Shown here: positions 1 through 64,000 of the stretch, piece after piece
Position numbering within the stretch: position 1 is the first letter of the stretch
Layout: each line of letters begins with the position of its first letter
DNA from: a plasmid
Length of the DNA stretch: 64,000 nt
NCBI RefSeq assembly: GCF_054482525.1
Contig: NZ_JBTHVG010000004.1
Strand: one strand, 5' to 3'
The notes under the pieces: generated by a model
Seen by the model: only the letters and a program-made list of their open reading frames with translations
What the model was told of the DNA's origin: nothing
Database searches by the model: none
Translations under genes and position numbers: made by a program

Positions 1-1
1 A

Positions 2-655
2 GAGCGCACGCTGGCAGTCCAGGCGGCACTCATGCAGCAGCCGGACAAATCTCTGGCACTGCTGGCATGGACGCTCTGCCTGAATGTGTTTGGCAGCGGG
101 GCGTACAGTAAACCAGCACAAATCAGCCTGGAATGTGAACATTACTCGCTGACCAGCGATGCGCCATCGGGGAAGGAAGGTGCCGCATTCATGGCGCTGA
201 TGGCAGAAAAAGCCCGTCTTGCTGCCCTGTTACCGGAGGGATGGTCACGGGACATGACGACATTCCTGTCACTCAGTCAGGAGGTGCTGTTATCCCTGCT
301 CAGCTTCTGCACTGCGTGCAGCATCCACGGTGTTCAGACCCGTGAGTATGGTCACACGTCACGCAGTCCGCTGGACTCGCTGGAAACCGCTATCGGCTTT
401 CACATGCGCGACTGGTGGCAGCCGACAAAAGCAAACTTCTTCGGACACCTGAAAAAGCCGCAGATTATCGCAGCCCTGAATGAGGCAGGACTGTCCGGTG
501 CCGCACGGGACGCGGAGAAGATGAAGAAAGGCGATGCCGCTGAACATGCAGAGTTCCATATGAAAGACAACCGCTGGGTGCCTGGCTGGATGTGTTCACC
601 ACGTCCACAGACGGATGCCACTGAACGCGCCGATAACCTGGCTGATGCCGCCTGA
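2..655 (+). CDS. ParB-like leading-region protein, C-terminal part (5' end lies outside the window)
   Basis: The reading frame is open from base 2 with no stop before the ATG at 32. It lies directly upstream of psiB, as in F and IncI leading regions. The family call rests on my recollection of the conserved C-terminus (HMRDWWQPTKANFFGHL). Confidence 0.55.
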   Translation, partial: ERTLAVQAALMQQPDKSLALLAWTLCLNVFGSGAYSKPAQISLECEHYSLTSDAPSGKEGAAFMALMAEKARLAALLPEGWSRDMTTFLSLSQEVLLSLLSFCTACSIHGVQTREYGHTSRSPLDSLETAIGFHMRDWWQPTKANFFGHLKKPQIIAALNEAGLSGAARDAEKMKKGDAAEHAEFHMKDNRWVPGWMCSPRPQTDATERADNLADAA

Positions 656-706
656 TGAACAACCACACCGCCCCGCCGGAGACGGGGCGGCAGAGGGAGA
701 AATACG

Positions 707-1144
707 ATGATGAATACCGAACTGACACTGAATGCCCTGCAGTCCATGAATGCCCAGGAATATGAAGAAATCCGTGCTGCGGGAAGCGATATGCGCCGTA
801 ATCTCACTCACGAGGTGATGCGTGAAGTGGACGCACCAGCTAACTGGATGATGAACGGAGAGTATGGCAGCGAGTTCGGGGGCTTTTTCCCCGTCCAGGT
901 TCGTTTCACGCCAGCCCACGAACGTTTCCACCTGGCATTATGTTCGCCGGGAGACGTCTCTCAGCTCTGGATGCTGGTTCTGGTGAATGGTGGTGGACAG
1001 CCTTTCGCCGTCGTTCAGGTGCAACATATCTTCACGCCTGTCGCGATCAGTCACACGCTGGCGCTTGCCGCGACACTGGATGCGCAGGGATACAGTGTTA
1101 ACGACATCATCCATATCCTGATGGCAGAAGGAGGTCAGGCATGA
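707..1144 (+). CDS. psiB: Plasmid SOS-inhibition protein PsiB
   Basis: 145-codon ORF whose sequence ([20 protein letters not shown]...) I recognise as PsiB. It lies immediately upstream of, and overlaps, psiA. Confidence 0.9.
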
Positions 1145-1860
1145 GCGCACGTTCACGGGCACTGATCCCCCTCAGCGCAGAACAACAGGCCGCCATGCAG
1201 GCGGTGGCTGTCACAGAACAACGTCGTCGTCAGGGACGCACACTTTCAGCATGGCCTTATGCCACCGCTTTCTTTCGCTGCCTGAATGGCAGTCGCCGGA
1301 TTTCGCTGACCGATCTCCGCTTTTTTGCCCCTGCGCTGACGAAGGAGGAATTTCATGGCAACCGTCTCCTGTGGCTGGCTGCCGTGGATAAACTGATTGA
1401 AAGTTTTGGGGAAGTCTGTGTTCTTCCCCTGCCATCCGATGCGGGGCACCGTCTGTTCCCGTCCGTGCCTTTTCGTGAAGGTGAGCGTCGTCGTCAGAAA
1501 ACCACGCTGACAGAGCAGAAATACAGCCGCCAGCGGGAACGTGAGGCAGAACGACGGGAACTGGAATACCAGACATGTTTTGCTCAGGCGCAGATTGACC
1601 TTGCGTTTCATACTCCCGCCACGGTCGGAAGCTGGTTGTCCCGCTGGTCTGGTGTTGTTGAGGAGCATGATCTGGAAACGATTTTCTGGGGGTGGTGCGG
1701 GCGTTTTCCGTCACTGTCATCATTTGACCGGTTTTTCTGGCAGGAGGAACCACTCTGGCGGCTGATTTTTGAAGCCGGTGAGGCCGGTCGTGGTGCACCG
1801 ATACAGGTACGTGCACTTGAGCAGTGGATGATCCCGAACAAGCTGGAGAACGTAATATGA
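1141..1860 (+). CDS. psiA: PsiA
   Basis: 239 aa. Its ATG overlaps the psiB stop (ATGA at 1141-1144). The sequence is recognised as PsiA of F/IncI leading regions. Confidence 0.9.
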
Positions 1861-2453
1861 TGAAATCAGACGAAAAATACCAGGTTCCCGCGTGGATGCG
1901 ACCTCTGTTGCCGTTGCTCTGCAACACCGGGGGGAACGATCCGGAAGAACTGCTGAATGATACAGAAACCACTGCCAGTGCGAATGTTGTCCGTTATGTA
2001 CTGATAGTTGCTGTGCGGTCGCAGGTTGATCTGCTGCAGCTTCTGTACAGGAAAGGGCTGTTGCGCACAGAGATACCAGGTGGCTTTTCACCGGAAGAAG
2101 CGCAGGCACTCCTGGATAATCTGGTGCGCAGCCATATCAGCAAGGCGCTGTCGGGCGAGCGAATGGCAGCCCGTGACAGAAATGCCGATCTGGCCTGGAT
2201 TAGACAGCAACTGGTCGATGCCGCCTGGTTTGTCCGTGCCACACTGGAAGCGCATGGGATGAGCGTCGGAAATGAGAGTCCCCCTGCTCCGCCGGAGACA
2301 ATGCCGGACATACAGACACGGGAACTGGTGATGTTGATCAAGCGACTGGCATCATCGCTGAAAGCGGTGAAACCGGACAGTTGTGTGGTGCGTGAAGCGC
2401 AGGACTGGCTGCGCGACAGAAAACTTGTGGATATCACAGATATTCTCCGGTGA
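1857..2453 (+). CDS. Leading-region hypothetical protein (198 aa)
   Basis: The ATG at 1857 overlaps the psiA stop, which suggests translational coupling. No domain is recognisable. I prefer this start over the track start at 1824. Confidence 0.6.
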   Translation: MMKSDEKYQVPAWMRPLLPLLCNTGGNDPEELLNDTETTASANVVRYVLIVAVRSQVDLLQLLYRKGLLRTEIPGGFSPEEAQALLDNLVRSHISKALSGERMAARDRNADLAWIRQQLVDAAWFVRATLEAHGMSVGNESPPAPPETMPDIQTRELVMLIKRLASSLKAVKPDSCVVREAQDWLRDRKLVDITDILR

Positions 2454-2640
2454 ACCAGGCATGTATATTTTACGCAGGGACATGCCGGTCATGATCGTTT
2501 CGTTCCAGGGGTGGTCTGGAGATCATGCGGTGTGCTCCCTGCTCTCGCCGGAATAAGGACGTCGCCGCCGGCTCCGCTTTTACCCGGCCATGCGGGGCAT
2601 GGCCTTGTGGGTTTTCAGTTATGTGGCCTCAGCGTCGTGT

Positions 2641-2880
2641 GCGGGCTGTGCCGTGCCTCCATCGTAGCCGGGCTTCTGCGGGCGGGTTGCAAGGTAAGGT
2701 GAACCGCTGCGGTCACCCGGTCCCTCCTTCCCGTCCGCCGTGATTTTCCGGTCGTTCACCCGCTCAGATTTCGCGGTCTCACCCTCCAACTCCCGCCAGC
2801 CGTGTGCGTCAGGCTGCGGCTTCCCTTGCGCCCTTGCAACCCTGCAGGCCCGGCAAAGATGGAGGCACGGCACCGCCCGG
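2641..2880 (+). promoter_or_regulatory. Long imperfect hairpin upstream of ardA (candidate single-strand promoter/ssi-type element)
   Basis: Bases 2641-2694 form an imperfect inverted repeat with 2832-2880. The core ccgtgcctccatc (2651-2663) pairs perfectly with gatggaggcacgg (2858-2870). The structure ends 35 nt before the ardA ATG. Confidence 0.55.
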
Positions 2881-2914
2881 TGTCGCAGAACATGTGACTA
2901 TGGAGGATTCGGGA

Positions 2915-3415
2915 ATGTCTGTTGTTGCACCTGCTGTATACGTTGGAACCTGGCACAAATACAACTGTGGAAGCATCGCCGGACGCTGGTTTGACCTGAC
3001 CACGTTTGATGATGAGCGCGACTTTTTCGCCGCCTGCCGTGCTCTTCACCAGGATGAAGCCGATCCTGAACTGATGTTTCAGGATTATGAGGGATTCCCG
3101 GGGAATATGGCCTCTGAATGCCATATCAACTGGGCCTGGGTTGAAGGCTTCCGCCAGGCACGGGATGAAGGCTGCGAAGAGGCTTATCGTCTCTGGGTGG
3201 AGGATACCGGTGAGACGGATTTTGACACCTTCCGCGATGCCTGGTGGGGCGAGGCTGACAGTGAGGAGGCTTTTGCGGTTGAGTTCGCCAGTGATACCGG
3301 CCTGCTGGCTGACGTGCCGGAGACGGTGGCGCTCTATTTTGACTATGAGGCGTATGCGCGGGATTTATTCCTGGACTCCTTCACCTTTATTGACGGTCAT
3401 GTGTTCCGTCGGTGA
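2915..3415 (+). CDS. ardA: Antirestriction protein ArdA (166 aa)
   Basis: Sequence MSVVAPAVYVGTWHKYNCGSIAGRWFDL... is recognised as ColIb-P9-type ArdA. It is acidic and 166 aa from the ATG at 2915. The track start at 2804 is an upstream extension. Confidence 0.9.
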   Translation: MSVVAPAVYVGTWHKYNCGSIAGRWFDLTTFDDERDFFAACRALHQDEADPELMFQDYEGFPGNMASECHINWAWVEGFRQARDEGCEEAYRLWVEDTGETDFDTFRDAWWGEADSEEAFAVEFASDTGLLADVPETVALYFDYEAYARDLFLDSFTFIDGHVFRR

Positions 3416-3768
3416 TTTACTCCCCCGCTCCGGCGGGGGTATGGCCTGCCAGGCCGCCGGAAAACCCTGGCAGGCTTACGCCTGCCTGAAATGCAGGAGG
3501 GCCGCGCCTGCGGCGCTGCCCTTCCTGCCCGTCATGGTGTGAGGCATTTTTCTGTTATGTCGTTTCTGTTGTTCTGATTTCCGGAGGCGGGGACACCTTC
3601 GGCTCCCGGCTGCCTGGCGGCATCCGGTCGTCAGGCCCGACTCCGACAGGCAGCTGCTGGCGCACCCGCCAGTCTCCGCCGAACCCGCTGGCGCGGTTTC
3701 GGGCTGCCGCTACGGTCCGATGTCTGAAAAACCAGGCTTGCAGCGACCGTTCCGGTCGCGCCGCCCCT

Positions 3769-4105
3769 GTCGCGCCGGAAACGGCGCTCCCTGCACACCT
3801 GACGGTGTGTAAGGCCACTGCGCCTGATGGCGCAGTCAACCCTTCCGCCGCCACCCCTGCGGCCTGTTTCCCGCTGTGGACTTTCCGGGGGCTGGAGTAA
3901 CCACATCCCGTTTCAGCAGTCCAGGGGAAGATATACCGTCCACAAAATTTTTAGCCATAAACCCGGCAAAAAATTTTGCGTCCGCCCCCGGACAGCTGCC
4001 CCGTGACGTGGTGACGGACGCCCCATCGGAAAGGTCCACTGCGGGGAGAAACCCCGAAGAAGTGGACGGCAGAAGGGGCTTTCGCCCCTCCGGGGAGCAA
4101 CCGGT
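3769..4105 (+). promoter_or_regulatory. Frpo/ssi-like repeat, copy I (non-coding, hairpin-forming)
   Basis: About 335 bp, repeated at 6635-6965. It contains a roughly 160-nt imperfect hairpin: ggactttcc (3878-3886) pairs with ggaaaggtcc (4028-4037), with an inner caaaattttt/aaaaattttg stem. It ends 39 nt before the ORF at 4144. Confidence 0.65.
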
Positions 4106-4143
4106 CGGCCCGGCGACCTGATTCAGCAGAAGGAGACGTTTTC

Positions 4144-4578
4144 ATGACTGTCAGCAGCACGATTTCCGTTTTTTGCCGCGACGGGGTGTTCCGTACCGTT
4201 TACTGCCACCTGCACGGTGAGCCGACCTGGAACGGTCGCATCCTGCATACCCACTATGCCACCGGTCAGCAGGCCGAAGCCCTGGTTGAACACGGTGATA
4301 TCCGTTGCCTCGGTCCCCGTTGCGACAAACCCGCCGGGCATACGCTTCAGAACCCGGTGGACGGTGTGACGGCTTATTACGGACGTGACAGTGGTTTCCG
4401 GATGGACAGTGAGGCGCGTGAGTACCGTTCTTTCAGGGAGGCTATTGCCACTGAAAGCACTGAAGAGGTGCGCTTCCATTATGTGTTCATCGACGGCTAC
4501 TGGAAGGTGATGTACCGCACGCCGGAAGGCTGGAAGATGAAAGCGCTCGCGCTGGCACTGCGTCGCTGTCCGAAATGA
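4144..4578 (+). CDS. Leading-region hypothetical protein (144 aa)
   Basis: ORF with a GGAGA sequence 8 nt upstream of the ATG, immediately downstream of Frpo-like copy I. No domain recognised. Confidence 0.65.
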   Translation: MTVSSTISVFCRDGVFRTVYCHLHGEPTWNGRILHTHYATGQQAEALVEHGDIRCLGPRCDKPAGHTLQNPVDGVTAYYGRDSGFRMDSEAREYRSFREAIATESTEEVRFHYVFIDGYWKVMYRTPEGWKMKALALALRRCPK

Positions 4579-4583
4579 AAAAA

Positions 4584-4604
4584 GGCAGGGCGATAAACCC
4601 TGCC
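4584..4604 (+). terminator. Stem-loop after the 144-aa ORF
   Basis: ggcaggg-cgataaa-ccctgcc hairpin 6 nt after the stop codon. The following T-tract is weak. Confidence 0.45.
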
Positions 4605-4670
4605 TCTCTCCGCCGGCGCTTCCCCGCCAGGAAGTCCGGCATCTCAATCACTATCTATGGAGATTATGCC

Positions 4671-4937
4671 ATGAGACCATCAATTATCTTCGCAACCGCC
4701 GAGTATGTAAAGCGTCTGCGTGAAGAGTGCCTGCGGGAGAATAAACCCCTGCACCGCCATACCCGCTTCAGACGTCAGGAGCTGGCACAGGATGAGATTA
4801 ACCCGGACGTCCTGGCGATGAGCGGCCATATCGCCAGACGCTGCAGTGAGCAGAAGCGGGTGCGTATCCCCGCTATGAAAGTCAGCGAATGGGGCCACCT
4901 GCTCCGCGCGCTTGAAATTGAGCGGGTCTGCCACTGA
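4671..4937 (+). CDS. Leading-region hypothetical protein (88 aa)
   Basis: The ATG at 4671 is preceded by GGAGA. The track start at 4575 would read through the hairpin at 4584-4604. The protein is basic and has no recognised domain. Confidence 0.55.
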   Translation: MRPSIIFATAEYVKRLREECLRENKPLHRHTRFRRQELAQDEINPDVLAMSGHIARRCSEQKRVRIPAMKVSEWGHLLRALEIERVCH

Positions 4938-5001
4938 TTAACCCTTGCCGTCTGCCTGTGCAGGCGGCAGGATACGTTCAGACATCTCACCAGGAGGAAC
5001 C

Positions 5002-5892
5002 GTGAGTAAGAAGAAAACCACCACGACGCCCACGCCGCATGATGCCGCGTTCCGGTCGTTCCTGGCGAATCCCGACGTCGCCAGAGATTTTCTGGAACTG
5101 CATCTTCCGGCGGAGTACCGGCAGTTGTGCGACCTGTCCACGCTGAAGCTGGAACCCGCCACCTTTGTTGAGCCGGACCTGCATCAGTACGCCAGCGATA
5201 TCCTCTGGAGTGTGAAAACCACCGGGGGTGAAGACGGCTATGTTTATACGCTCATCGAGCACCAGAGCACCGAAAATCTGTACATGCCTTTCCGCATGTT
5301 ACGTTACAGTGTGGCGGCGATGCAGAGACATCTGGAGCAGCACAAAACGTTGCCACTGGTGATTCCTGTGCTGTTCTATCATGGTGAGCGCAGCCCGTAC
5401 CCGTACAGCATGAACTGGCTGGACTGTTTTGAGAATCCGGCACTTGCGGCTAAAATATACACAAAGCCGTTTCCGCTGGTTGATATCACTGTCGTTGATG
5501 ACAATGAAATCATGAACCATCGCCGGATGGCCGCACTGACGCTGCTGATGAAGCATATCCGCCATCGTGACATGATGGATCTGCTGGACAAACTCCCGCA
5601 GGTCATGGTGGAAATTTCAGACGAGCAGGTGCGTGTTCTGATTCATTACATCGTTAACGCAGGGGACTCTGTATCACCGGAATTTATGCGGGCGCTGGCT
5701 GAGCGTCTGCCGCAGCATGAGGATAAACTGATGACTATCGCAGAACGTCTTGAGCAAAAAGGTCGCCAGGAAGGAGCGCTTGAAAAAGCCCTGGCTATTG
5801 CGTGCCAGCTTCAGAAAATGGGGATGACGCCGGAGCAGATTAAGCAGGCTACCGGACTTTCCGAAGCTGAACTGAAAAAAATCATTCACTGA
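5002..5892 (+). CDS. Rpn-family (YhgA-like, PD-(D/E)XK) recombination-promoting nuclease
   Basis: GTG at 5002 with AGGAGG at 4993-4998. It has the PHDAAFRSF N-terminus and the D...IEHQS nuclease core typical of RpnA-E/YhgA proteins, plus the helical C-terminal domain KLMTIAERLEQKGRQEG. Confidence 0.8.
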   Translation: MSKKKTTTTPTPHDAAFRSFLANPDVARDFLELHLPAEYRQLCDLSTLKLEPATFVEPDLHQYASDILWSVKTTGGEDGYVYTLIEHQSTENLYMPFRMLRYSVAAMQRHLEQHKTLPLVIPVLFYHGERSPYPYSMNWLDCFENPALAAKIYTKPFPLVDITVVDDNEIMNHRRMAALTLLMKHIRHRDMMDLLDKLPQVMVEISDEQVRVLIHYIVNAGDSVSPEFMRALAERLPQHEDKLMTIAERLEQKGRQEGALEKALAIACQLQKMGMTPEQIKQATGLSEAELKKIIH

Positions 5893-5903
5893 TGAGAGCA
5901 TCA

Positions 5904-5930
5904 CAGCCCGGCAAAATGCCGGGCTTTTTT
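5904..5930 (+). terminator. Rho-independent terminator after rpn
   Basis: agcccggc-aaaat-gccgggct followed by tttttt. Confidence 0.8.
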
Positions 5931-5954
5931 GTCAGCAGGAGCAGAGAAAACAGT

Positions 5955-6149
5955 ATGACGCTTGCAGAACGTCTTATACAGAAAGGTTTCGACGAAGGTT
6001 TTAAAGAAGGTTTTAAGAAAGGTGCGCTTGAAGTGGCGCGGGAAGCAGCCTGCCGGCTGCGGGATATGGGCTGGACGCCGGAACGGATTCAGGAGGCGAC
6101 CGGACTTTCCGGTGAAGAACTGAAAAAGCTGTTTCCTGATGAGCAGTAG
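5955..6149 (+). CDS. Free-standing Rpn C-terminal-domain homologue (64 aa)
   Basis: MTLAERLIQKGFDEG...MGWTPERIQEATGLSGEELKKL aligns by eye with the last ~55 aa of the upstream Rpn protein (MTIAERLEQKGRQEG...MGMTPEQIKQATGLSEAELKKI). It starts after the rpn terminator. Its Shine-Dalgarno sequence is weak. Confidence 0.6.
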   Translation: MTLAERLIQKGFDEGFKEGFKKGALEVAREAACRLRDMGWTPERIQEATGLSGEELKKLFPDEQ

Positions 6150-6179
6150 CCTGACATTCTGCCAGGCTGTGAATCACGC

Positions 6180-6431
6180 TCACACATTCCCTGCCGTTTC
6201 CCCCAGTTCATTTTCCAGACGCCTGATGATATCTGCCTTGCGCATCCCCTGCATGTGAGGCAGCAGGTCACGGACTGAAAGTGCCTGGGTGGTCCTCCAG
6301 ACGGTGACGTCCACCTGTTCCGCATTTTCCCAGGCGTGCCATGTTCTCTGCGTCACGCCAAATTCTCTGGCCGCTTTTTCGCGTGACCATAGCATGCTTT
6401 TTCGCCAGATTCGCAGTTCCCAGCCGGTCAT
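6180..6431 (-). CDS. Small helix-turn-helix (XRE-like) DNA-binding protein (83 aa)
   Basis: ORF with an HTH-like segment (REKAAREFGVTQRTWHAWEN). It is divergent from two palindromic boxes. Confidence 0.6.
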   Translation of the reverse strand: MTGWELRIWRKSMLWSREKAAREFGVTQRTWHAWENAEQVDVTVWRTTQALSVRDLLPHMQGMRKADIIRRLENELGETAGNV

Positions 6432-6445
6432 AAAACACCTTTGAA

Positions 6446-6466
6446 AAAGTGAAAAAACTTCACTTT
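6446..6466. promoter_or_regulatory. Palindromic operator-like box 1 (AAAGTGAA-N5-TTCACTTT)
   Basis: Perfect 8-bp arms, 15 bp upstream of the HTH gene start. Confidence 0.5.
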
Positions 6467-6512
6467 ATTTTATCATCACAATTGCCAAATCAGCGCGATA
6501 AATAAGTGTAAA

Positions 6513-6533
6513 AAAGTGAAGAAATTTCACTTT
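6513..6533. promoter_or_regulatory. Palindromic operator-like box 2 (AAAGTGAA-N5-TTCACTTT)
   Basis: Same arms as box 1, with centres 67 bp apart, in an AT-rich intergenic region. Confidence 0.5.
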
Positions 6534-6634
6534 TTTTGTTTGTAAGTGTCGTGCGGTTTTCTCTGTTTTCACCTGTGCGGGAGTGGTGTGCCAGTGACCA
6601 CCACATGCCATTGTTGTGCCGTCGTTTTTCTTCA

Positions 6635-6965
6635 GTCGCGCCGGATGCGGCGCTCCCTGCACACCTTACGGTGTGTAAGGCCACTGCGCCTGATGGCGCA
6701 GCTGTCTCTTGCCTGTCTGCCGCCGCACTGCGGCCTGTTCTCCGCAGACGGACTTTCCGGGGGTACATACACGACCACATCCCGTTTCAGTCGTCCAGGG
6801 GAGAGATGTACCAGCCACAAAACTTTTTGCCGCTGGCGTCAAAAACTTTTGCGTCTGCCCCCGGACAACTGCCCCGTGACGTGGTGAGCGTCCCCCGTCG
6901 GAAAGGTCCACTGCGGGGAAATACCCTAAGACCCGGACGGCAGAAGGAGCTTCGCTCCTCCGGGA
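6635..6965 (+). promoter_or_regulatory. Frpo/ssi-like repeat, copy II
   Basis: Aligns with 3769-4105 along its whole length by eye. The equivalent hairpin runs from 6750-6758 to 6900-6909. It ends about 45 nt before the ORF at 7012. Confidence 0.65.
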
Positions 6966-7011
6966 AATGACCTGGCTGACCCGGCAGTCGTGACGATGAG
7001 GAGACAATGTG

Positions 7012-7860
7012 ATGAATCAGACTTTACCCACTGCTGACCTGAATACTGCCGGCACGACAGATGTTATTCCGTCTGTGGCTATCGACCGCATCATCGCGCA
7101 GCGTAACGAAGGTATTGCACTATTCATGCAGGCGATGGAATGCCTGGCGACAGCGCGCAGGATTCTGCTCGATGCGTCAGGTGATATTTTTCTTTACGGG
7201 TTTGAAGACTGCGTGACTGATTCCGTTCGTCGCATGGATAAGCCGGAAGAAGCGAAAAGGAATATCACCCGTCTTGCCGACCGGAAAATCTGGGACCGCC
7301 TGATGACAGATACGGGCATGTACACCTTCATGAGTTCATGCCAGCGTGATGAGTGGAACAGCCAGCTGATGAGCGACACCTGTCCTGAAATCACCCTGGA
7401 CAATGTACTGGCAACATTCCGCCATCTTAATACCAGCAAGATGCAGACGTTTGAACAGGGACTGATTGATGTCTACCGGAAATTGTCATGGGATTACAGA
7501 ACCAATAATCCCTGCCGTCTGGGCAAGAAAATCATTATTGAAAACATGCTGTACCGCTGGAGTAACGGGCGTGTGACGCTGGACTGCAGCGGACGGGAGG
7601 CACTGGATGACCTGGTACGTCCTTTTTATCTGCTGGAGGGGCGAAACGTTCCTGACTTCCGGAGCAGCATCGGGGCGCAGTATGGTGAATTTCTCGGGAA
7701 CGGCGACAACGTCGGTAAGCTGTTAGAAGGGGAATATTTTACGGTGCGTGGCTACCAGAAAGGGACCGTACACATTGTCTTTAAGCGTCCTGACCTTGTT
7801 GAAAAACTGAATGATATTATTGCACGGCATTATCCTGGTGCATTGCCGCCACGAGTCTGA
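7012..7860 (+). CDS. DUF4942-like leading-region protein (282 aa)
   Basis: ATG at 7012 with GAGGAG 8 nt upstream. The family call comes from recollection of DUF4942 proteins in leading regions and CP4-type islands, so it is moderately certain. Confidence 0.6.
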   Translation: MNQTLPTADLNTAGTTDVIPSVAIDRIIAQRNEGIALFMQAMECLATARRILLDASGDIFLYGFEDCVTDSVRRMDKPEEAKRNITRLADRKIWDRLMTDTGMYTFMSSCQRDEWNSQLMSDTCPEITLDNVLATFRHLNTSKMQTFEQGLIDVYRKLSWDYRTNNPCRLGKKIIIENMLYRWSNGRVTLDCSGREALDDLVRPFYLLEGRNVPDFRSSIGAQYGEFLGNGDNVGKLLEGEYFTVRGYQKGTVHIVFKRPDLVEKLNDIIARHYPGALPPRV

Positions 7861-7870
7861 TTAAACAGAA

Positions 7871-7902
7871 AAGCCCTGGTATTTATGCCGGGGCTTTTTT
7901 TT
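7871..7902. terminator. Terminator between convergent genes
   Basis: agccctgg...ccggggct stem followed by a T8 run. Confidence 0.65.
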
Positions 7903-7945
7903 CTGTAATCATCATAATCTCAGAACACGATGTGACATTGTCACA

Positions 7946-8281
7946 TCAATTGTTGTTCATATCGATGCCATCTTTCCTGCCTGAATCTGTCTTTTTAGGT
8001 GCTGTTTTAGAGGAAGAACGGCGGGATGGTTTTTTCGATTCTGCTTCCCGAATAATGTCACGAAGTGCCTTCTCTCCTACTTCATACCCTGCATTTTTAA
8101 GCGTGTCACGAACATCTGCCAGTGTATAACCCTTTGTCCTTACCAGGACAATGATGTCATCACGAATGGCATCAAGAAAATCACGCAATGTTTTCCGTTG
8201 AGCGGTGAGGTCCGGCAATTCCGATAAGGCAGCTTTTGCCAGCTGGATGTCATCATCTGAGTAAAATTTTTTAGAAGCCAT
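7946..8281 (-). CDS. oriT-adjacent hypothetical protein (111 aa)
   Basis: ATG at 8281 with GGAGAG upstream. The C-terminus is Lys/Ser-rich. Function unknown. Confidence 0.6.
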   Translation of the reverse strand: MASKKFYSDDDIQLAKAALSELPDLTAQRKTLRDFLDAIRDDIIVLVRTKGYTLADVRDTLKNAGYEVGEKALRDIIREAESKKPSRRSSSKTAPKKTDSGRKDGIDMNNN

Positions 8282-8412
8282 TGGCACTTTCTCTCCGTTT
8301 CATGTTGAAGTCTGATTTTATCATCAAAAACTGACTCCTGGCAGGGCTGCGCCCTGCTTCTGCCGTCTGCATAAGACTATGATGCACAAAAATAACAGGC
8401 TATAATGGCCTG

Positions 8413-8470
8413 AAAAACGGGACAGGATGTGCAATTGTAATACCGTCACACGCGACGCTATTACAATTGC
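8413..8470 (-). other. oriT: oriT core: nick region plus 17-bp inverted repeat
   Basis: The minus strand reads gcaattgtaatagcgtc...gacggtattacaattgc (17-bp inverted repeat with one mismatch, 8431-8470), followed 8 nt later by ATCCTG/T. This matches the RP4/R64 nick consensus as I recall it. Predicted nick between 8423 and 8422. Confidence 0.8.
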
Positions 8471-8514
8471 CATCTGGTCAGGGCTTCGCCCCGACACCCC
8501 GTAAGGAGCCTGAA

Positions 8515-8847
8515 GTGAGTGATAGTGCGGTAAGAAAGAAAAGTGAGGTACGGCAAAAGACAGTTGTCAGGACACTCAGATTCTCTCCTGTTGAGGATGA
8601 AACCATCAGGAAAAAAGCTGAAGATTCCGGACTTACTGTATCTGCTTACATCCGAAATGCAGCACTGAATAAGCGAATTAACTCCCGTACAGATGATGCT
8701 TTTCTGAAGGAGTTAATGAGACTGGGAAGGATGCAGAAGCATCTGTTTGTTCAGGGAAAAAGAACCGGTGACAAGGAATACGCAGAAGTGCTTGTTGCCA
8801 TAACCGAACTTACAAATACATTGCGTAAACAGTTAATGGAAGGTTGA
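8515..8847 (+). CDS. nikA: Relaxosome accessory protein NikA (110 aa, ribbon-helix-helix)
   Basis: A GTG at 8515 gives 110 aa (MSDSAVRKKSEVRQKTVVRTLRFSPVEDETIRKKAE...), recognised as R64 NikA. The track start at 8467 would overlap oriT. Confidence 0.85.
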   Translation: MSDSAVRKKSEVRQKTVVRTLRFSPVEDETIRKKAEDSGLTVSAYIRNAALNKRINSRTDDAFLKELMRLGRMQKHLFVQGKRTGDKEYAEVLVAITELTNTLRKQLMEG

Positions 8848-8857
8848 GGATTCTCCG

Positions 8858-11560
8858 GTGAATGCAGTCATTCCGAAAAAGAGAAGGGACGGCAAGTCTT
8901 CGTTCGAAGACCTGGTATCCTACGTCTCTGTCCGGGATGACATGACCGATGAGGAACTGGATTTATCTTCTTCTTCGCAGGCTGAACAACCGCACCGAAG
9001 CCGTTTCAGTCGCCTTGTTGATTATGCGACACGTCTTCGAAATGAGTCATTCGTGGCGCTGGTTGATGTCATGAAGGACGGCTGCGAATGGGTCAACTTT
9101 TATGGTGTCACCTGCTTTCATAACTGTACTTCTCTTGAAACTGCCGCTGCAGATATGGAGTACATTGCCCGGCAGGCACACTATGCAAAAGATGACACTG
9201 ATCCTGTTTTTCACTACATCCTTTCCTGGCAGTCACATGAAAGCCCGCGTCCGGAACAGATTTATGACAGTGTACGTCATACGCTGAAATCACTCGGCCT
9301 TGCCGACCATCAGTATGTCTCTGCCGTGCATACTGATACAGATAATCTGCACGTCCATGTGGCTGTTAACCGGGTACACCCTGAAACGGGTTATCTGAAC
9401 CGGTTATCATGGAGTCAGGAAAAACTCAGTCGTGCCTGCCGTGAGCTTGAACTGAAGCATGGTTTTGCTCCGGATAACGGTTGCTGGGTCCATGCGCCGG
9501 GAAATCGTATCGTTCGCAAAACTGCCGTTGAACGTGATCGCCAGAACGCTTGGACACGCGGAAAAAAACAAACTTTTCGCGAGTATGTTGCGCAGACAGC
9601 GGTCGCTGGTTTACGCAGTGAACCTGTACATGACTGGTTATCCCTGCATCGTCGTCTTGCTGAAGATGGTTTGTACCTGTCTCAGATGGACGGAAAATTT
9701 CTGGTGATGGATGGCTGGGATCGCAACAGGGAAGGTGTACAGCTTGACTCGTTTGGTCCCTCCTGGTGTGCAGAAAAACTCATGAAAAAAATGGGTGACT
9801 ACACGCCAGTGCCAAAAGACATTTTCAGCCAGGTGGAAGCACCAGGACGCTATAATCCGGACTTCATTGCAGCTGATGTTCGCCCGGAAAAAATCGCTGA
9901 AACAGAAAGTCTGCAGCAGTATGCCTGTCGTCATCTTGGAGAACGTCTGCCGGAAATGGCACGGGAAGGACGGCTGGAAAACTGCCAGGCTATTCACCGC
10001 ACACTGGCTGAAGCGGGATTATGGATGCGTGTTCAGCATGGTCACCTGGTTATCTGTGACGGTTATGATCATAACCAGACTCCCGTTCGTGCTGACAGCG
10101 TATGGTCACTGCTGACGCTCGACAATGTGAATCAACTCGATGGTGGCTGGCAGCCTGTACCAACAGATATTTTCCGCCAGGTTACGCCAACAGAACGCTT
10201 CCGTGGTCGTCGTATGGAGAGCTGTCCTGCGACCGATAAAGAATGGCACCGTATGCGTACAGGTACGGGGCCGCAGGGGGCTATCAAACGCGAACTGTTT
10301 TCTGACAAAGAAAGTCTGTGGGGATACAGCATCAGCCATTGTAGCCCTCAGATTGAAGAAATGATCACACAGGGTGAGTTTACCTGGCAGCGTTGTCATG
10401 AGTTGTTTGCACAACAGGGACTGATGCTACAGAAACAACATCACGGGCTTGTTGTCGTTGATGCCTTTAATCATGAGCAAACGCCGGTGAAGGCCAGCAG
10501 CATTCATCCTGATCTGACTCTGGGGCGTGCAGAGCCACAGGCCGGACCTTTTGTGAGTGCCCCAGCAGATTTGTTTGACAGGGTGCAACCTGAAAGTCGC
10601 TATAACCCGGAGCTGGCTGTCAGTGACAGGTACGGGGTCAGCAGTAAACGTGACCCAATGCTGCGCCGGCAGCGACGTGAAGCCAGAGCTGAGGCCCGTG
10701 CTGACCTGCGTGCCCGCTATCTGGCATGGCGTGAACAATGGCGTAAACCAGATCTGCGTTATGGGGAACGTTGTCGGGAAATTCATCAGGCATGCCGTCT
10801 GCGGAAGTCACACATTCGTGCGCAGTACGATGATCCGGCATTACGTAAGCTGCATTATCACATTGCAGAAGTTCAGCGAATGCAGGCATTGATCAGGCTG
10901 AAAGAAGACATCAGGGATGAGCGGCAGAAACTTATTGCTGACGGGAAGTGGTATCCACCCTCTTACCGTCAGTGGGTCGAAATTCAGGCTGCTCAGGGAG
11001 ACAGGGCTGCTGTATCGCAGCTGAGAGGCTGGGATTATCGCGATCGCCGTAAAGATAAGTCACGCACAACGACAACAGACCGCTGTGTCGTGCTTTGTGA
11101 ACCGGGCGGAACGCCGGTATACGGTAATACCGGTGATCTCGAGGCCCGTTTGCAGAAGAACGGGAGTGTTCGTTTCCGTGACCGTCGGACGGGAGAGTTT
11201 GTCTGTACGGATTATGGTGACAGGGTTGTTTTCCGTAATCACCATGACCGCAATGCGCTGGCAGATAAACTGGATTTGATTGCACCGGTATTATTCGGGC
11301 GTGATCCACGCATGGGTTTTGAACCAGAAGGAAACGACAAACAATTTAACCAGGTCTTTGCTGAAATGGTTGCCTGGCATAATGTGACAGGCCGTACCGG
11401 TCACGAAGACTACAGGATTACGCGACCGGACGTGGATCATCACCGTGAAGGAAGTGAACGCTACTACCGCGATTATATCGCGGCGAACAGCAACGATGAC
11501 GCATCACTGCCTCCGCCGGAGCAGGATAAACTCTGGGAACCGCCTTCTCCGATGAGATGA
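8858..11560 (+). CDS. nikB: Relaxase NikB
   Basis: About 900 aa. It has the histidine-triad relaxase motif HTDTDNLHVHVAVN. Its position after nikA and its length match R64 NikB. Confidence 0.9.
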   Translation: MNAVIPKKRRDGKSSFEDLVSYVSVRDDMTDEELDLSSSSQAEQPHRSRFSRLVDYATRLRNESFVALVDVMKDGCEWVNFYGVTCFHNCTSLETAAADMEYIARQAHYAKDDTDPVFHYILSWQSHESPRPEQIYDSVRHTLKSLGLADHQYVSAVHTDTDNLHVHVAVNRVHPETGYLNRLSWSQEKLSRACRELELKHGFAPDNGCWVHAPGNRIVRKTAVERDRQNAWTRGKKQTFREYVAQTAVAGLRSEPVHDWLSLHRRLAEDGLYLSQMDGKFLVMDGWDRNREGVQLDSFGPSWCAEKLMKKMGDYTPVPKDIFSQVEAPGRYNPDFIAADVRPEKIAETESLQQYACRHLGERLPEMAREGRLENCQAIHRTLAEAGLWMRVQHGHLVICDGYDHNQTPVRADSVWSLLTLDNVNQLDGGWQPVPTDIFRQVTPTERFRGRRMESCPATDKEWHRMRTGTGPQGAIKRELFSDKESLWGYSISHCSPQIEEMITQGEFTWQRCHELFAQQGLMLQKQHHGLVVVDAFNHEQTPVKASSIHPDLTLGRAEPQAGPFVSAPADLFDRVQPESRYNPELAVSDRYGVSSKRDPMLRRQRREARAEARADLRARYLAWREQWRKPDLRYGERCREIHQACRLRKSHIRAQYDDPALRKLHYHIAEVQRMQALIRLKEDIRDERQKLIADGKWYPPSYRQWVEIQAAQGDRAAVSQLRGWDYRDRRKDKSRTTTTDRCVVLCEPGGTPVYGNTGDLEARLQKNGSVRFRDRRTGEFVCTDYGDRVVFRNHHDRNALADKLDLIAPVLFGRDPRMGFEPEGNDKQFNQVFAEMVAWHNVTGRTGHEDYRITRPDVDHHREGSERYYRDYIAANSNDDASLPPPEQDKLWEPPSPMR

Positions 11561-17248: not shown

Positions 17249-17419
17249 ATAAAAGGATTGTTGCAGATACGAAAGTCGTTAGAATAGCCGCGGACGCTTG
17301 AGGCTGTATGCCGAAAGCGTTTTGTGGATGGTATACAGCAGAAAGCCCCCTGGAGATTTTTTATCAATCAACCAGGGGCTCTACTGTAATGCCTAGACAA
17401 CATTATAGTAGCCTGATAA
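17249..17419 (+). repeat. Duplicated, truncated copy of the pnd promoter/leader
   Basis: 171 bp matching 18670-18840, with 8 substitutions and two 1-nt indels by hand alignment. It includes TTGTTG-16 bp-TAGAAT (17258-17285) and the first 10 pndC-like codons, then diverges. Confidence 0.85.
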
Positions 17420-17461
17420 TTTAGATATGTGTACATCCTACCGGAAAAGATACTTTTCAGG

Positions 17462-18669: not shown

Positions 18670-18840
18670 ATAAAAGGATTGTTACAGATACGAAAGTCGT
18701 TAGAATAGCTGCGGGCGCTTGAGGCTGTATGCCGAAAGCGTTTTGTGGACGGTATACAGCAGAAAGCCCCTGGAGATTTTTTTATCAATCAACCAAGGGC
18801 TCTACTGTAATGCCTCAACAACATTATAGTAGCCCGATAA
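18670..18840 (+). repeat. pnd promoter/leader (intact copy)
   Basis: The partner of 17249-17419. It continues into pndC and pndA. Confidence 0.85.
18760..18820 (-). ncRNA. pndB: PndB (Sok-like) antisense RNA, approximate limits
   Basis: Minus-strand TTGCCT-17 bp-TACTAT (-10 at 18826-18831), antisense to the pndC start. A terminator-like stem (agcccttgg/ccaggggct) lies downstream. The limits are inferred by analogy with hok/sok. Confidence 0.5.
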
Positions 18841-19013
18841 CCGCCGGAAGGCAATGGAGGGGCTATGATGCCACAGCGAACGTTTTTAATGATGTTAATC
18901 GTCGTCTGTGTGACGATTCTGTGTTTTGTCTGGATGGTGAGGGATTCGCTTTGCGGACTCCGGCTCCAGCAGGGAAACACAGTGCTTGTGGCAACGTTAG
19001 CCTACGAAGTTAA
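18810..19013 (+). CDS. pndC: PndC (Mok-like overlapping reading frame)
   Basis: The ATG at 18810 opens a frame that overlaps pndA, as in hok/mok-type loci. Confidence 0.6.
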   Translation: MPQQHYSSPITAGRQWRGYDATANVFNDVNRRLCDDSVFCLDGEGFALRTPAPAGKHSACGNVSLRS

Positions 19014-19343: not shown

Positions 19344-19496
19344 CGGATTTTCTCTCTGTATTTATGGGTAGTTATCGAACTGAATGTGCCAGTTTTTTCA
19401 GGAGACGGCAAAGTTGAGATGATTGGTTCTGATTCAAAGCATGAGTTTCCCCGGTGTGACGGGCATGTCGGGCGGATTTTGAGAAACAACAGATGT

Positions 19497-19527
19497 AAAA
19501 AAACCGACTGGTGAGGTCGGTTTTTTT
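19497..19527. terminator. Bidirectional rho-independent terminator
   Basis: aaaaaaa-ccgac-tggtgag-gtcgg-ttttttt. It has a U-tract when read on either strand. Confidence 0.85.
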
Positions 19528-19583
19528 ACTGTTCCGTTACAGAGTGGGTGGCTCTGGTCGGAAAAGAACTGTCTATAACTGAC
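19497..19583 (-). ncRNA. Predicted AgrB/IstR-like antitoxin sRNA (~85 nt)
   Basis: A minus-strand promoter (TTGCAG 19618-19613, 17-bp spacer, TACTAT 19595-19590) places the transcription start near 19583. The first 32 nt are complementary to 19740-19771 (31 Watson-Crick pairs plus 1 G-U). It ends at the terminator at 19497-19527. Confidence 0.6.
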
Positions 19584-62913: not shown

Positions 62914-63232
62914 CTAAAAACGCTATCACTGAGTTCCTACGCTCATTGGTGATAGCCCAGACGGGGGTAGGAATACCGGCGTCATCGGAAACCGGCCAGG
63001 CTAATGCCTGCCCCGCCTGAGCTACCATAGATGACGACAAGAAATACAAGTTCCTGTCTTTATGGTATGGCAAAAAACGACGCCAAATGAAGAAATTAAC
63101 TTCTGCGCCGACGATGACTACGCGGGTTCCTACGCCCGATCACAGTTTTGCCTGTGACCAGTAAAGGGTACTTAGTATAACGCACCGAGTCAACTAACAG
63201 CTTAAAAAACATACAAAAAAGCGTCAAAACTT

Positions 63233-63700: not shown

Positions 63701-63892
63701 GTTGTAATGCTTTTCAAATTAACGTAAAGCGGGTATATTTCGGCTGTTATTAGCTGTGCAGAGGGTGGCACTCTGTGGAGCAAAGCGGCGAAAGTCGGAC
63801 GGCAGAATGCGCCATAAGGCATTCAGGAGAGATGGCATGTACGGGCAGTAAGTCAGAAGACTGAAGATGTTCCGGAAGCCATAAAAGGAAAA

Positions 63893-63943
63893 CCCCCACT
63901 ATCTTTCTTACGAACTTGGCGGAACGACGAAAGATAGTGGGGG
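63893..63943 (-). terminator. Strong hairpin terminator (candidate CIS terminator of the rep operon)
   Basis: Perfect 15-bp stem, cccccactatctttc / gaaagatagtggggg. In minus sense it is followed by ttttcctttt. Confidence 0.6.
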
Positions 63944-64000
63944 CCTCACAGAATACGGGTAAAGTATAATGAAACCGTACCAGAGATTCAACCCTGTGCA

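Follow-up and report, generated by a model that had tools for sequence, protein, structure and literature searches.

The three elements ssi1, ssi2 and ssi3 of plasmid ColIb-P9 were reportedly described in 1999 by Bates and colleagues and in 2004 by Nasim and colleagues. On plasmid F, the element Frpo (ssiD; Masai & Arai 1997) is now listed as Frpo1 and Frpo2 or as ssp1a and ssp1b (Couturier et al. 2023; Fraikin et al. 2026 preprint). For F Frpo, transcription from single-stranded (ss) DNA by host RNA polymerase has been published both in vitro and in vivo, and Couturier et al. (2023) found the F homologues to be needed for early expression in vivo. The Frpo-type hairpin has been described as reconstituting -35 and -10 boxes (Wen et al. 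2025; Couturier et al. 2023). Samuel et al. (2024) counted 13,089 Frpo homologues across 6,006 conjugative elements and tied them to anti-defence islands; a link of this kind, which the first-pass annotation of the present locus had mentioned, is thus a published one.

For plasmid pESBL, recipient RNA was sequenced after the donor cells had been eliminated (Wen et al. 2025; PMC12672017). In that study, leading-region operons were induced up to approximately 500-fold 15 min after mating. Six upstream intergenic segments all fold into large stem-loops, and 5'-RACE start sites, obtained for all six promoters, 'matched their in silico predictions'. The elements ssi1-3 were grouped with Frpo1 and Frpo2 of F as 'class 1' ssDNA promoters, which are the strongest of those on pESBL. 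Induction had faded by 30-60 min; in a uvrD recipient, in which ssDNA persists, it was both stronger and more prolonged (PMC12672017). Class 1 was renamed ssp1 in a later preprint (Fraikin et al. 2026). Class 2 ('ssp2') and class 3 ssDNA promoters of IncI1 plasmids and F are also long leading-region T-strand hairpins that drive early genes (Wen et al. 2025; Fraikin et al. 2026). In F, ssp2 acts as a replication roadblock, and class 1 has not been reported as one (Fraikin et al. 2026 preprint).

The window analysed here, a stretch of 64 kb of plasmid DNA, carries a repZ pseudoknot at 63885-64000 (Rfam), which points to an IncI1-type replicon. The other Rfam matches comprise two sok-type antitoxin RNAs, an AgrB antisense RNA and a C4 antisense RNA. 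The gene map of the left end was drawn from annotated relatives including ColIb-P9 and pESBL (Table 1). At about 8420 the minus strand reads 5'-TTGCACATCCTG/TCCCGTTTTT (in short TTGCACATCCTG/TCCCG; slash, nick), preceded by an inverted repeat, and represents a nick motif of the IncP/IncI type with CAGGAT on the plus strand at 8423-8428. The exact nick position, 8423/8422, is presumed from established knowledge of the IncP/IncI oriT sites of R64 and RP4. With the nick on the minus strand and the relaxase on the 5' side, the minus strand would enter the recipient from 8422 toward base 1. As the strand that enters first it would be the template for plus-strand genes, which would hence be transcribed toward oriT. 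Judged from the sequence, the segment from 8422 to 1 is a leading region of the IncI1 type, and the minus strand is the T-strand. The first-pass annotation, which had placed the motif on the minus strand at 'about 8423' with entry toward base 1, agrees with this reading, the motif lying directly beside nikAB.

Table 1. Features of the 64-kb window referred to in the text. Positions are those of the window; a slash in the nick motif marks the presumed nick.
Feature	Position	Strand	Evidence or remark
psiB	707-1144
psiA	1141-1860
Hypothetical ORF	1824-2453
ardA	2915-3415		Pfam ArdA, E 2e-29
Copy I, very probably ssi2, a class 1 (Frpo-type, 'ssp1') ssDNA promoter	3767-4092	-	325/326 nt to ColIb-P9 AJ238399:4353-4678
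Three small GC-rich hairpins (3772-3787, 3794-3809, 3818-3835)	3772-3835	-	Folding
ssi2 main imperfect hairpin, 88 pairs including 6 G.T wobbles, apex loop 3957-3964	3842-4075	-	Minimum-free-energy fold and family covariation
Mismatch bubble, 3' arm, T-strand TTACTCCA, opposite 4013-4019	3893-3900	-	Internal loop in fold
Invariant helix, T-strand CCCCTGGACT, partner 3985-3993	3918-3927	-	6/7 pairs invariant; flanking helices vary with compensation
Unpaired bulge, 3' arm, T-strand GTATATCTT	3928-3936	-	Unpaired in folds; consensus GTnCATnT, CAT.T nearly invariant
A/T-rich apex helix and loop (3941-3952 paired with 3969-3980)	3941-3980	-	7/11 pairs invariant in family
orf144, first gene after ssi2, 144 aa	4144-4578	+	ORF; hypothetical in ColIb-P9 and pESBL
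orf88, second gene of ssi2 unit, 88 aa, no family relative	4671-4937	+	ORF; Pfam, NCBIfam
Rpn/YhgA-family recombination-promoting nuclease, ssi2 unit	5002-5892	+	Pfam Transposase_31 E 3e-78; NCBIfam TIGR01784 E 5e-52
HTH gene	6180-6431	-
Copy II, very probably ssi1, the class 1 ssDNA promoter closest to oriT	6633-6962	-	98.5% to ColIb-P9 AJ238399:1459-1787
ssi1 main hairpin, 86 pairs including 7 G.T wobbles	6716-6944	-	Minimum-free-energy fold
DUF4942 protein, 282 aa, after ssi1	7012-7860	+	Pfam DUF4942 E 9e-51
Small minus-strand gene	7946-8287	-
oriT nick motif CATCCTG/TCC, nick presumably between 8423 and 8422	8420-8429	-	Sequence; nikA/nikB adjoining
nikA	8467-8847
nikB	8858-11560
Other Rfam matches (all)	17292-17449, 18713-18870, 19495-19582, 62945-63032

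A GC-rich element of about 335 bp had been noted twice in this region, and BLAST within the 64-kb window returned both copies at the expected places. Copy I (3769-4105) and copy II (6635-6964 or 6965) share 81.4% identity over 338 nt (E 1e-80), and the GC content of the repeat is approximately 0.62. With 3769-4105 as query no third copy was detected within the 64-kb window; the third copy of the family, ssi3, lies upstream of ssb just left of base 1, outside the window, where it heads the ssb-psiB-psiA operon. No Rfam family covers copy I or copy II. The earlier observation that each copy ends a few tens of nt ahead of a plus-strand gene was confirmed. The gap amounts to about 40-50 nt between the end of copy I and the ATG at 4144 and to approximately 45 nt between copy II and the ATG at 7012, and both downstream genes possess a Shine-Dalgarno sequence.

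To identify the repeats, ssi reference coordinates were taken from Supplementary file 4 of Samuel et al. (2024), and the sequences were BLASTed against the window. The entry labelled 'Frpo2' in that file is ssi2 and corresponds to window positions 4092-3767, while 'Frpo1' is ssi1 and corresponds to 6962-6633. Copy I is 99.7% identical to ssi2 and copy II 98.5% identical to ssi1 of ColIb-P9 (ssi1-3, AJ238399), and the order counted from oriT is likewise copy II as ssi1 and copy I as ssi2. Compared with pESBL-EA11, copy I is identical at 326/326 positions (65169-65494) and copy II at 98.5% (68569-68897), and positions 1-8422 of the window are 97-98% identical to pESBL throughout. The early transcription burst, which the first-pass annotation had listed as a check, has already been measured in a plasmid whose ssi2 equals copy I and whose ssi1 is 98.5% identical to copy II (PMC12672017). 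ssi3 is 86.9% identical to copy I. Among PLSDB plasmids, 2,254 match copy I, 1,512 of these at at least 99%; the carriers are nearly all conjugative, belong to Escherichia, Salmonella and Shigella, and usually harbor the element at three places per record.

These data support the Frpo/ssi-like reading of the first-pass annotation and extend it, in that the copies are not merely similar to ssi elements but correspond to ssi2 and ssi1 of ColIb-P9 themselves. The alignment that had been suggested as a check gave near-identity to ssi1 and ssi2 as well as colinear homology to Frpo1 and Frpo2 of F. Sequence homology to the published Frpo/ssi elements (ssi2, 325/326 nt; ssi1, 98.5%) thus places both copies in class 1, as do position and orientation: the copies are located 1.5 and 4.4 kb from the nick, and all genes downstream of them are on the plus strand. 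We consider it highly probable that the repeats are the IncI1 class 1 ssDNA promoters ssi2 (copy I) and ssi1 (copy II). Both elements have been described previously, and the finding is not new. The function assigned to them here is a predicted one, taken from publications on identical or near-identical sequences.

The genes downstream of the copies had been regarded as unknown. This description applies to orf144 and orf88, which lack a family, but not to the Rpn/YhgA-family nuclease and the DUF4942 protein, which were both recognised. Sequence searches with orf144 gave no match in Pfam, NCBIfam or PDB, and a PDB sequence search with the DUF4942 protein found no relative. An 85-aa fragment ORF (5892-6149) that follows the Rpn gene is a diverged duplicate of the Rpn C-terminus (TIGR01784 215-273, E 5e-8), and the DNA segments 5731-5879 and 5955-6127 are 72-75% identical. 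Between the HTH gene and ssi1, region 6432-6560 contains an AT-rich inverted repeat (6444-6469 / 6510-6535) built on AAAAAGTGAA...TTCACTTTTT. It looks like the operator/promoter region of the HTH regulator, and duplex transcription might also proceed from there toward ssi1 and the DUF4942 gene.

Region 1-8422 was scanned for T-strand folding as done by Wen et al., using segments of 300 nt, steps of 10 nt and a criterion of -75 kcal/mol. Only three zones fell below this value (2571-2940, 3341-4140 and 6571-7010; mean -50.7, sd 13.1), and copies I and II account for two of them. Folding of the complete elements on the T-strand yielded -110.8 kcal/mol for copy I (z -8.9) and -106.1 kcal/mol for copy II (z -8.1), and 0/100 shuffles were as good. 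Both copies thus form a long, stable but imperfect T-strand stem-loop, as is characteristic of class 1. The pairing of 3878-3886 with 4028-4037 and the inner pairing CAAAATTTTT / AAAAATTTTG, both proposed in the first-pass annotation, are part of the minimum-free-energy structure; the hairpin length of about 160 nt given there was too short, as the fold spans approximately 230 nt in either copy.

The main hairpins are 11-14 kcal/mol more stable on the T-strand than on its complement (-70.1 vs -59.1 kcal/mol for ssi2; -65.7 vs -51.3 kcal/mol for ssi1), and they contain 6-7 G.T wobbles as compared to 0-1 in the best fold of the complement. Since G.T wobbles turn into C.A mismatches on the other strand, the higher stability of the T-strand argues for selection on the strand that is transferred. 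However, folding of the complement is likewise strong (-98.7 kcal/mol, z -8.1), an unavoidable property of inverted repeats, and folding alone does not identify the functional strand.

Further, 13 hairpin cores were aligned (alignment A2), comprising the two copies of the window, ssi3 of ColIb-P9, Frpo1 and Frpo2 of F, elements of five IncF plasmids found in E. coli and Klebsiella, and, taken from Samuel et al., the Serratia and insect-metagenome sequences. The consensus fold of these cores recovered the hairpin with 48 pairs. In the alignment 96.8% of the cells were paired, compared with 88.9% in column shuffles (0/500 reached the observed value) and 37-51% in shifted registers. Compensatory changes on both sides were seen in 14/48 pairs, against 1-5 in shifted registers. 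The family consensus of the invariant helix is GTCCnGGG/CCCnGGAC (3919-3927 with 3985-3993), whereas compensated variation is seen in the base-proximal helices and in the helix that separates the TGGAC box from the mismatch bubble. In copy II the counterpart of the unpaired bulge is found at 6802-6811 (GTACATCTCT), where it separates the invariant TGGAC helix from the A/T apex helix. The small hairpins at 3772-3835 belong to the published ssi2 unit, in which they follow the main hairpin on its 3' side on the T-strand; all three ssi elements conserve them, and F does so in part.

This pattern bears on the idea that the repeats have no sequence function of their own and are scattered substrates for recombination or what is left of a mobile module. 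Recombination between them does explain the loss or gain of 9.7 kb of leading region between pO26-CRL125 and pO111-CRL115, and Couturier et al. pointed to possible recombination between the Frpo copies in F. However, compensatory changes maintain the hairpin between copies that are just 70-80% identical, and specific helices are invariant, which indicates selection on structure and sequence rather than neutral repeats. Repeats without a function of their own are therefore extremely improbable, and recombination between the copies is better seen as a side effect.

The open reading frames within the repeats, of 59-99 aa and on both strands (e.g. 3555-3854 on the minus strand), could in principle encode small proteins, and some records do annotate a CDS across the repeats. 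Most records, however, annotate nothing there, and long open frames are expected at a GC content of 62-70%. In nine out of ten gap runs between ssi1 and ssi2 the length is not divisible by three, so that the frame is broken, and a Pfam search with the nine ORFs that lie within or overlap the repeats returned no family. Neither a conserved frame nor a family match thus speaks for coding sequence, and the probability that real small proteins are encoded is negligible. The proposal of the first-pass annotation that these ORFs, which overlap each other on both strands, are non-coding is therefore upheld. Hypothetical proteins are nevertheless annotated across ssi repeats or their flanks in NZ_CP018625.1 (11816-12100, corresponding to window positions 3555-3839) and in other RefSeq records; given the frame-breaking indels between the copies and the lack of a family match, they are very likely spurious.

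Inspection of the stem for -35/-10-like boxes revealed a bubble at a distance of 17 nt from the invariant TGGAC helix, with hexamers (TGGACT / TTACTC) that are far from consensus. A consensus sigma-70 scan of 3543-4200 found no hexamer pair that passed in or near copy I. From apex to base, the 3' arm consists of an A/T tract, the bulge, TGGACT, 17 nt, TTACTCCA within the bubble, and a nearly perfect helix. This order resembles the succession of UP element, -35 box, spacer, pre-melted -10 box and downstream duplex, and would position the start near 4020-4030. In the layout that we propose on this basis, the 3' arm would serve as the non-template strand and the invariant A/T apex helix may act in an UP-element-like manner. 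The invariant CCCTGGAC helix may function as -35 mimic (TGGACT at 3923 to 3918) and the bubble (3900 to 3893), 17 nt away, as pre-melted -10, such that the boxes would read TGGACT-17 nt-TTACTC. Transcription would then start at approximately 4020-4030 on the template arm, generate a 5' UTR of about 120 nt and exit through the base of the stem.

On the opposite arm, F-type members hold the better-looking pair TTGAGA-17 nt-CATCAC, which would direct transcription toward the apex. The IncI copies have GTGGAC in place of TTGAGA, and this sequence changes along with its pairing partner, which argues that it behaves there as a structural helix. The layout on the 3' arm is therefore moderately favoured over that on the 5' arm. 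The conserved bulge (TATATC/TACATC) was also considered as a pre-melted -10 box and discarded: most members lack an A at position 2, and no -35 box fits. With respect to F, the mismatch bubble reads GGGGCATACTGCC in the ssiD sequence of 1991 (D90178) and GGGGCATCACTGCC in the F reference (NC_002483, 15575-16032), the one-base difference being located in the candidate -10 hexamer of the 5' arm.

Taken together with the published work, the following course of events is proposed. During conjugation the minus strand would be nicked at 8423/8422 and enter the recipient 5' end first, so that the region next to 8422 would arrive early and single-stranded. Each element would fold back to form an imperfect hairpin about 230 nt long, whose stem may mimic a duplex sigma-70 promoter and thereby allow host RNA polymerase to transcribe the T-strand before its complement exists. 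Transcription would proceed toward oriT into the plus-strand genes, i.e., from ssi2 into orf144, orf88 and rpn, and from ssi1 into the DUF4942 gene. The same transcripts might also prime synthesis of the complementary strand, as published for F only. Once the duplex has formed, the hairpin would be lost and the promoter switched off, resulting in a transient burst of expression.

Priming leads to the question of whether the elements are mainly single-strand initiation sites at which RNA polymerase makes a primer for complementary-strand synthesis, with mRNA as a secondary product. The name 'ssi' itself derives from single-strand initiation activity, and Frpo RNA of F primes DNA synthesis in vitro. 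In vivo support for transcripts priming complementary-strand synthesis in F has come from rifampicin-sensitive early conversion events downstream of the class 1 promoters (Fraikin et al. 2026 preprint). Such a role is, however, compatible with that of a promoter, as both would use one and the same transcription event. Moreover, the downstream genes of pESBL are induced up to about 500-fold, and each copy is positioned 40-50 nt ahead of a gene with a Shine-Dalgarno sequence. Priming as the main role is thus unlikely; it is best taken as a further use of the transcripts made from these promoters, one that does not compete with their role in expression.

Alternatively, ordinary duplex promoters might express the downstream genes, and the repeats might be structured spacers or terminators between operons. 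A promoter-like sequence, GTGAAA-16 nt-TATCAT (9/12 matches), is indeed present at 6449-6476 upstream of copy II, next to the AT-rich inverted repeat and the HTH repressor gene, but this site is weak, and no promoter-like site exists in 3543-4200. Except for one weak match, the plus strand of the copies is devoid of a T-run terminator; the fold favours one strand, and the hairpin covaries. Published expression is transient and recipient-specific, and it is prolonged while ssDNA persists. Ordinary duplex expression is therefore very improbable as an explanation, and we retain the ssDNA promoters ssi2 and ssi1 as the preferred one.

It is conceivable, though improbable, that a class 1 element holds a separate additional module that serves in exclusion of SSB, in positioning of RNA polymerase or its sigma factor, or in slowing complementary-strand synthesis as ssp2 does. 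Candidates for such a module would be (i) the GTnCATnT bulge; (ii) the three or four small GC hairpins (3772-3835); and (iii) the structured flank of ssi2 and ssi3 of about 170-350 nt (3416-3766). This same improbable reading would also allow the promoter geometry of the IncI elements to differ from that of F, with the 3' arm as non-template strand and TGGAC as a non-consensus -35.

The spacer between ardA and ssi2 (3416-3766) has a GC content of 0.64-0.71, is non-coding and folds on the T-strand with -104.3 kcal/mol (z -6.0). A second copy of its part 3597-3766 precedes ssi3 (90% identity across 499 nt when the ssi is included), and approximately 3712-3766 is common to F. A class 2 copy is present directly upstream of ardA at about 2555-2914, with inverted repeat arms at 2642-2673 / 2848-2879; its T-strand hairpin (-91.9 kcal/mol, z -4.7) is about equally stable on both strands. 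Window positions 2454-3086 share 88-93% identity with the sequences that precede ardA and klcA/ardB in pESBL, ColIb-P9 and F. This class 2 region (2454-3086) did not match copy I or copy II, and neither copy is thus a member of class 2.

Elements of this kind let conjugative plasmids express genes for anti-restriction, SOS inhibition and establishment within minutes after entry, before the duplex is formed, and such early expression from ssDNA is central to resistance plasmids getting past the defences of the recipient. For annotation, 3767-4092 should be labelled ssi2 and 6633-6962 ssi1 instead of hypothetical CDS. In addition, orf144, orf88, the Rpn nuclease and the DUF4942 protein are early leading-region genes and as such reasonable candidates for anti-defence or establishment functions. 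Current understanding is left unchanged by the identification of ssi2 and ssi1.

Compared to F, the hairpin architecture and the placement in the leading region upstream of genes templated by the T-strand are the same, and Frpo1, Frpo2 and the IncI elements are colinear homologues over their full length including the 5' flank. The parts of Frpo common to the IncI elements are the apex helix, the CCCTGGAC helix, the bulge and the small 3' hairpins. Nucleotide similarity to the two copies is patchy, with 73-88% over stretches of 56-118 nt, and the original Frpo, ssiD, matches just around the apex (73-74% over 92-116 nt). The base-proximal helices of Frpo differ from those of IncI, with compensation, the 5' arm reading TTGAGA in the F type and GTGGAC in IncI. 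Unlike the genes of the window, those downstream of Frpo in F are ygeA/ygeB and the ssb operon. In ColIb-P9 and pESBL, by contrast, the elements occupy the same positions with respect to ardA, the Rpn gene, the DUF4942 gene, oriT and nikAB, and follow the same strand logic. From their ColIb-P9 counterparts, copy I differs by one substitution and copy II by four substitutions and one indel, none of which is material.
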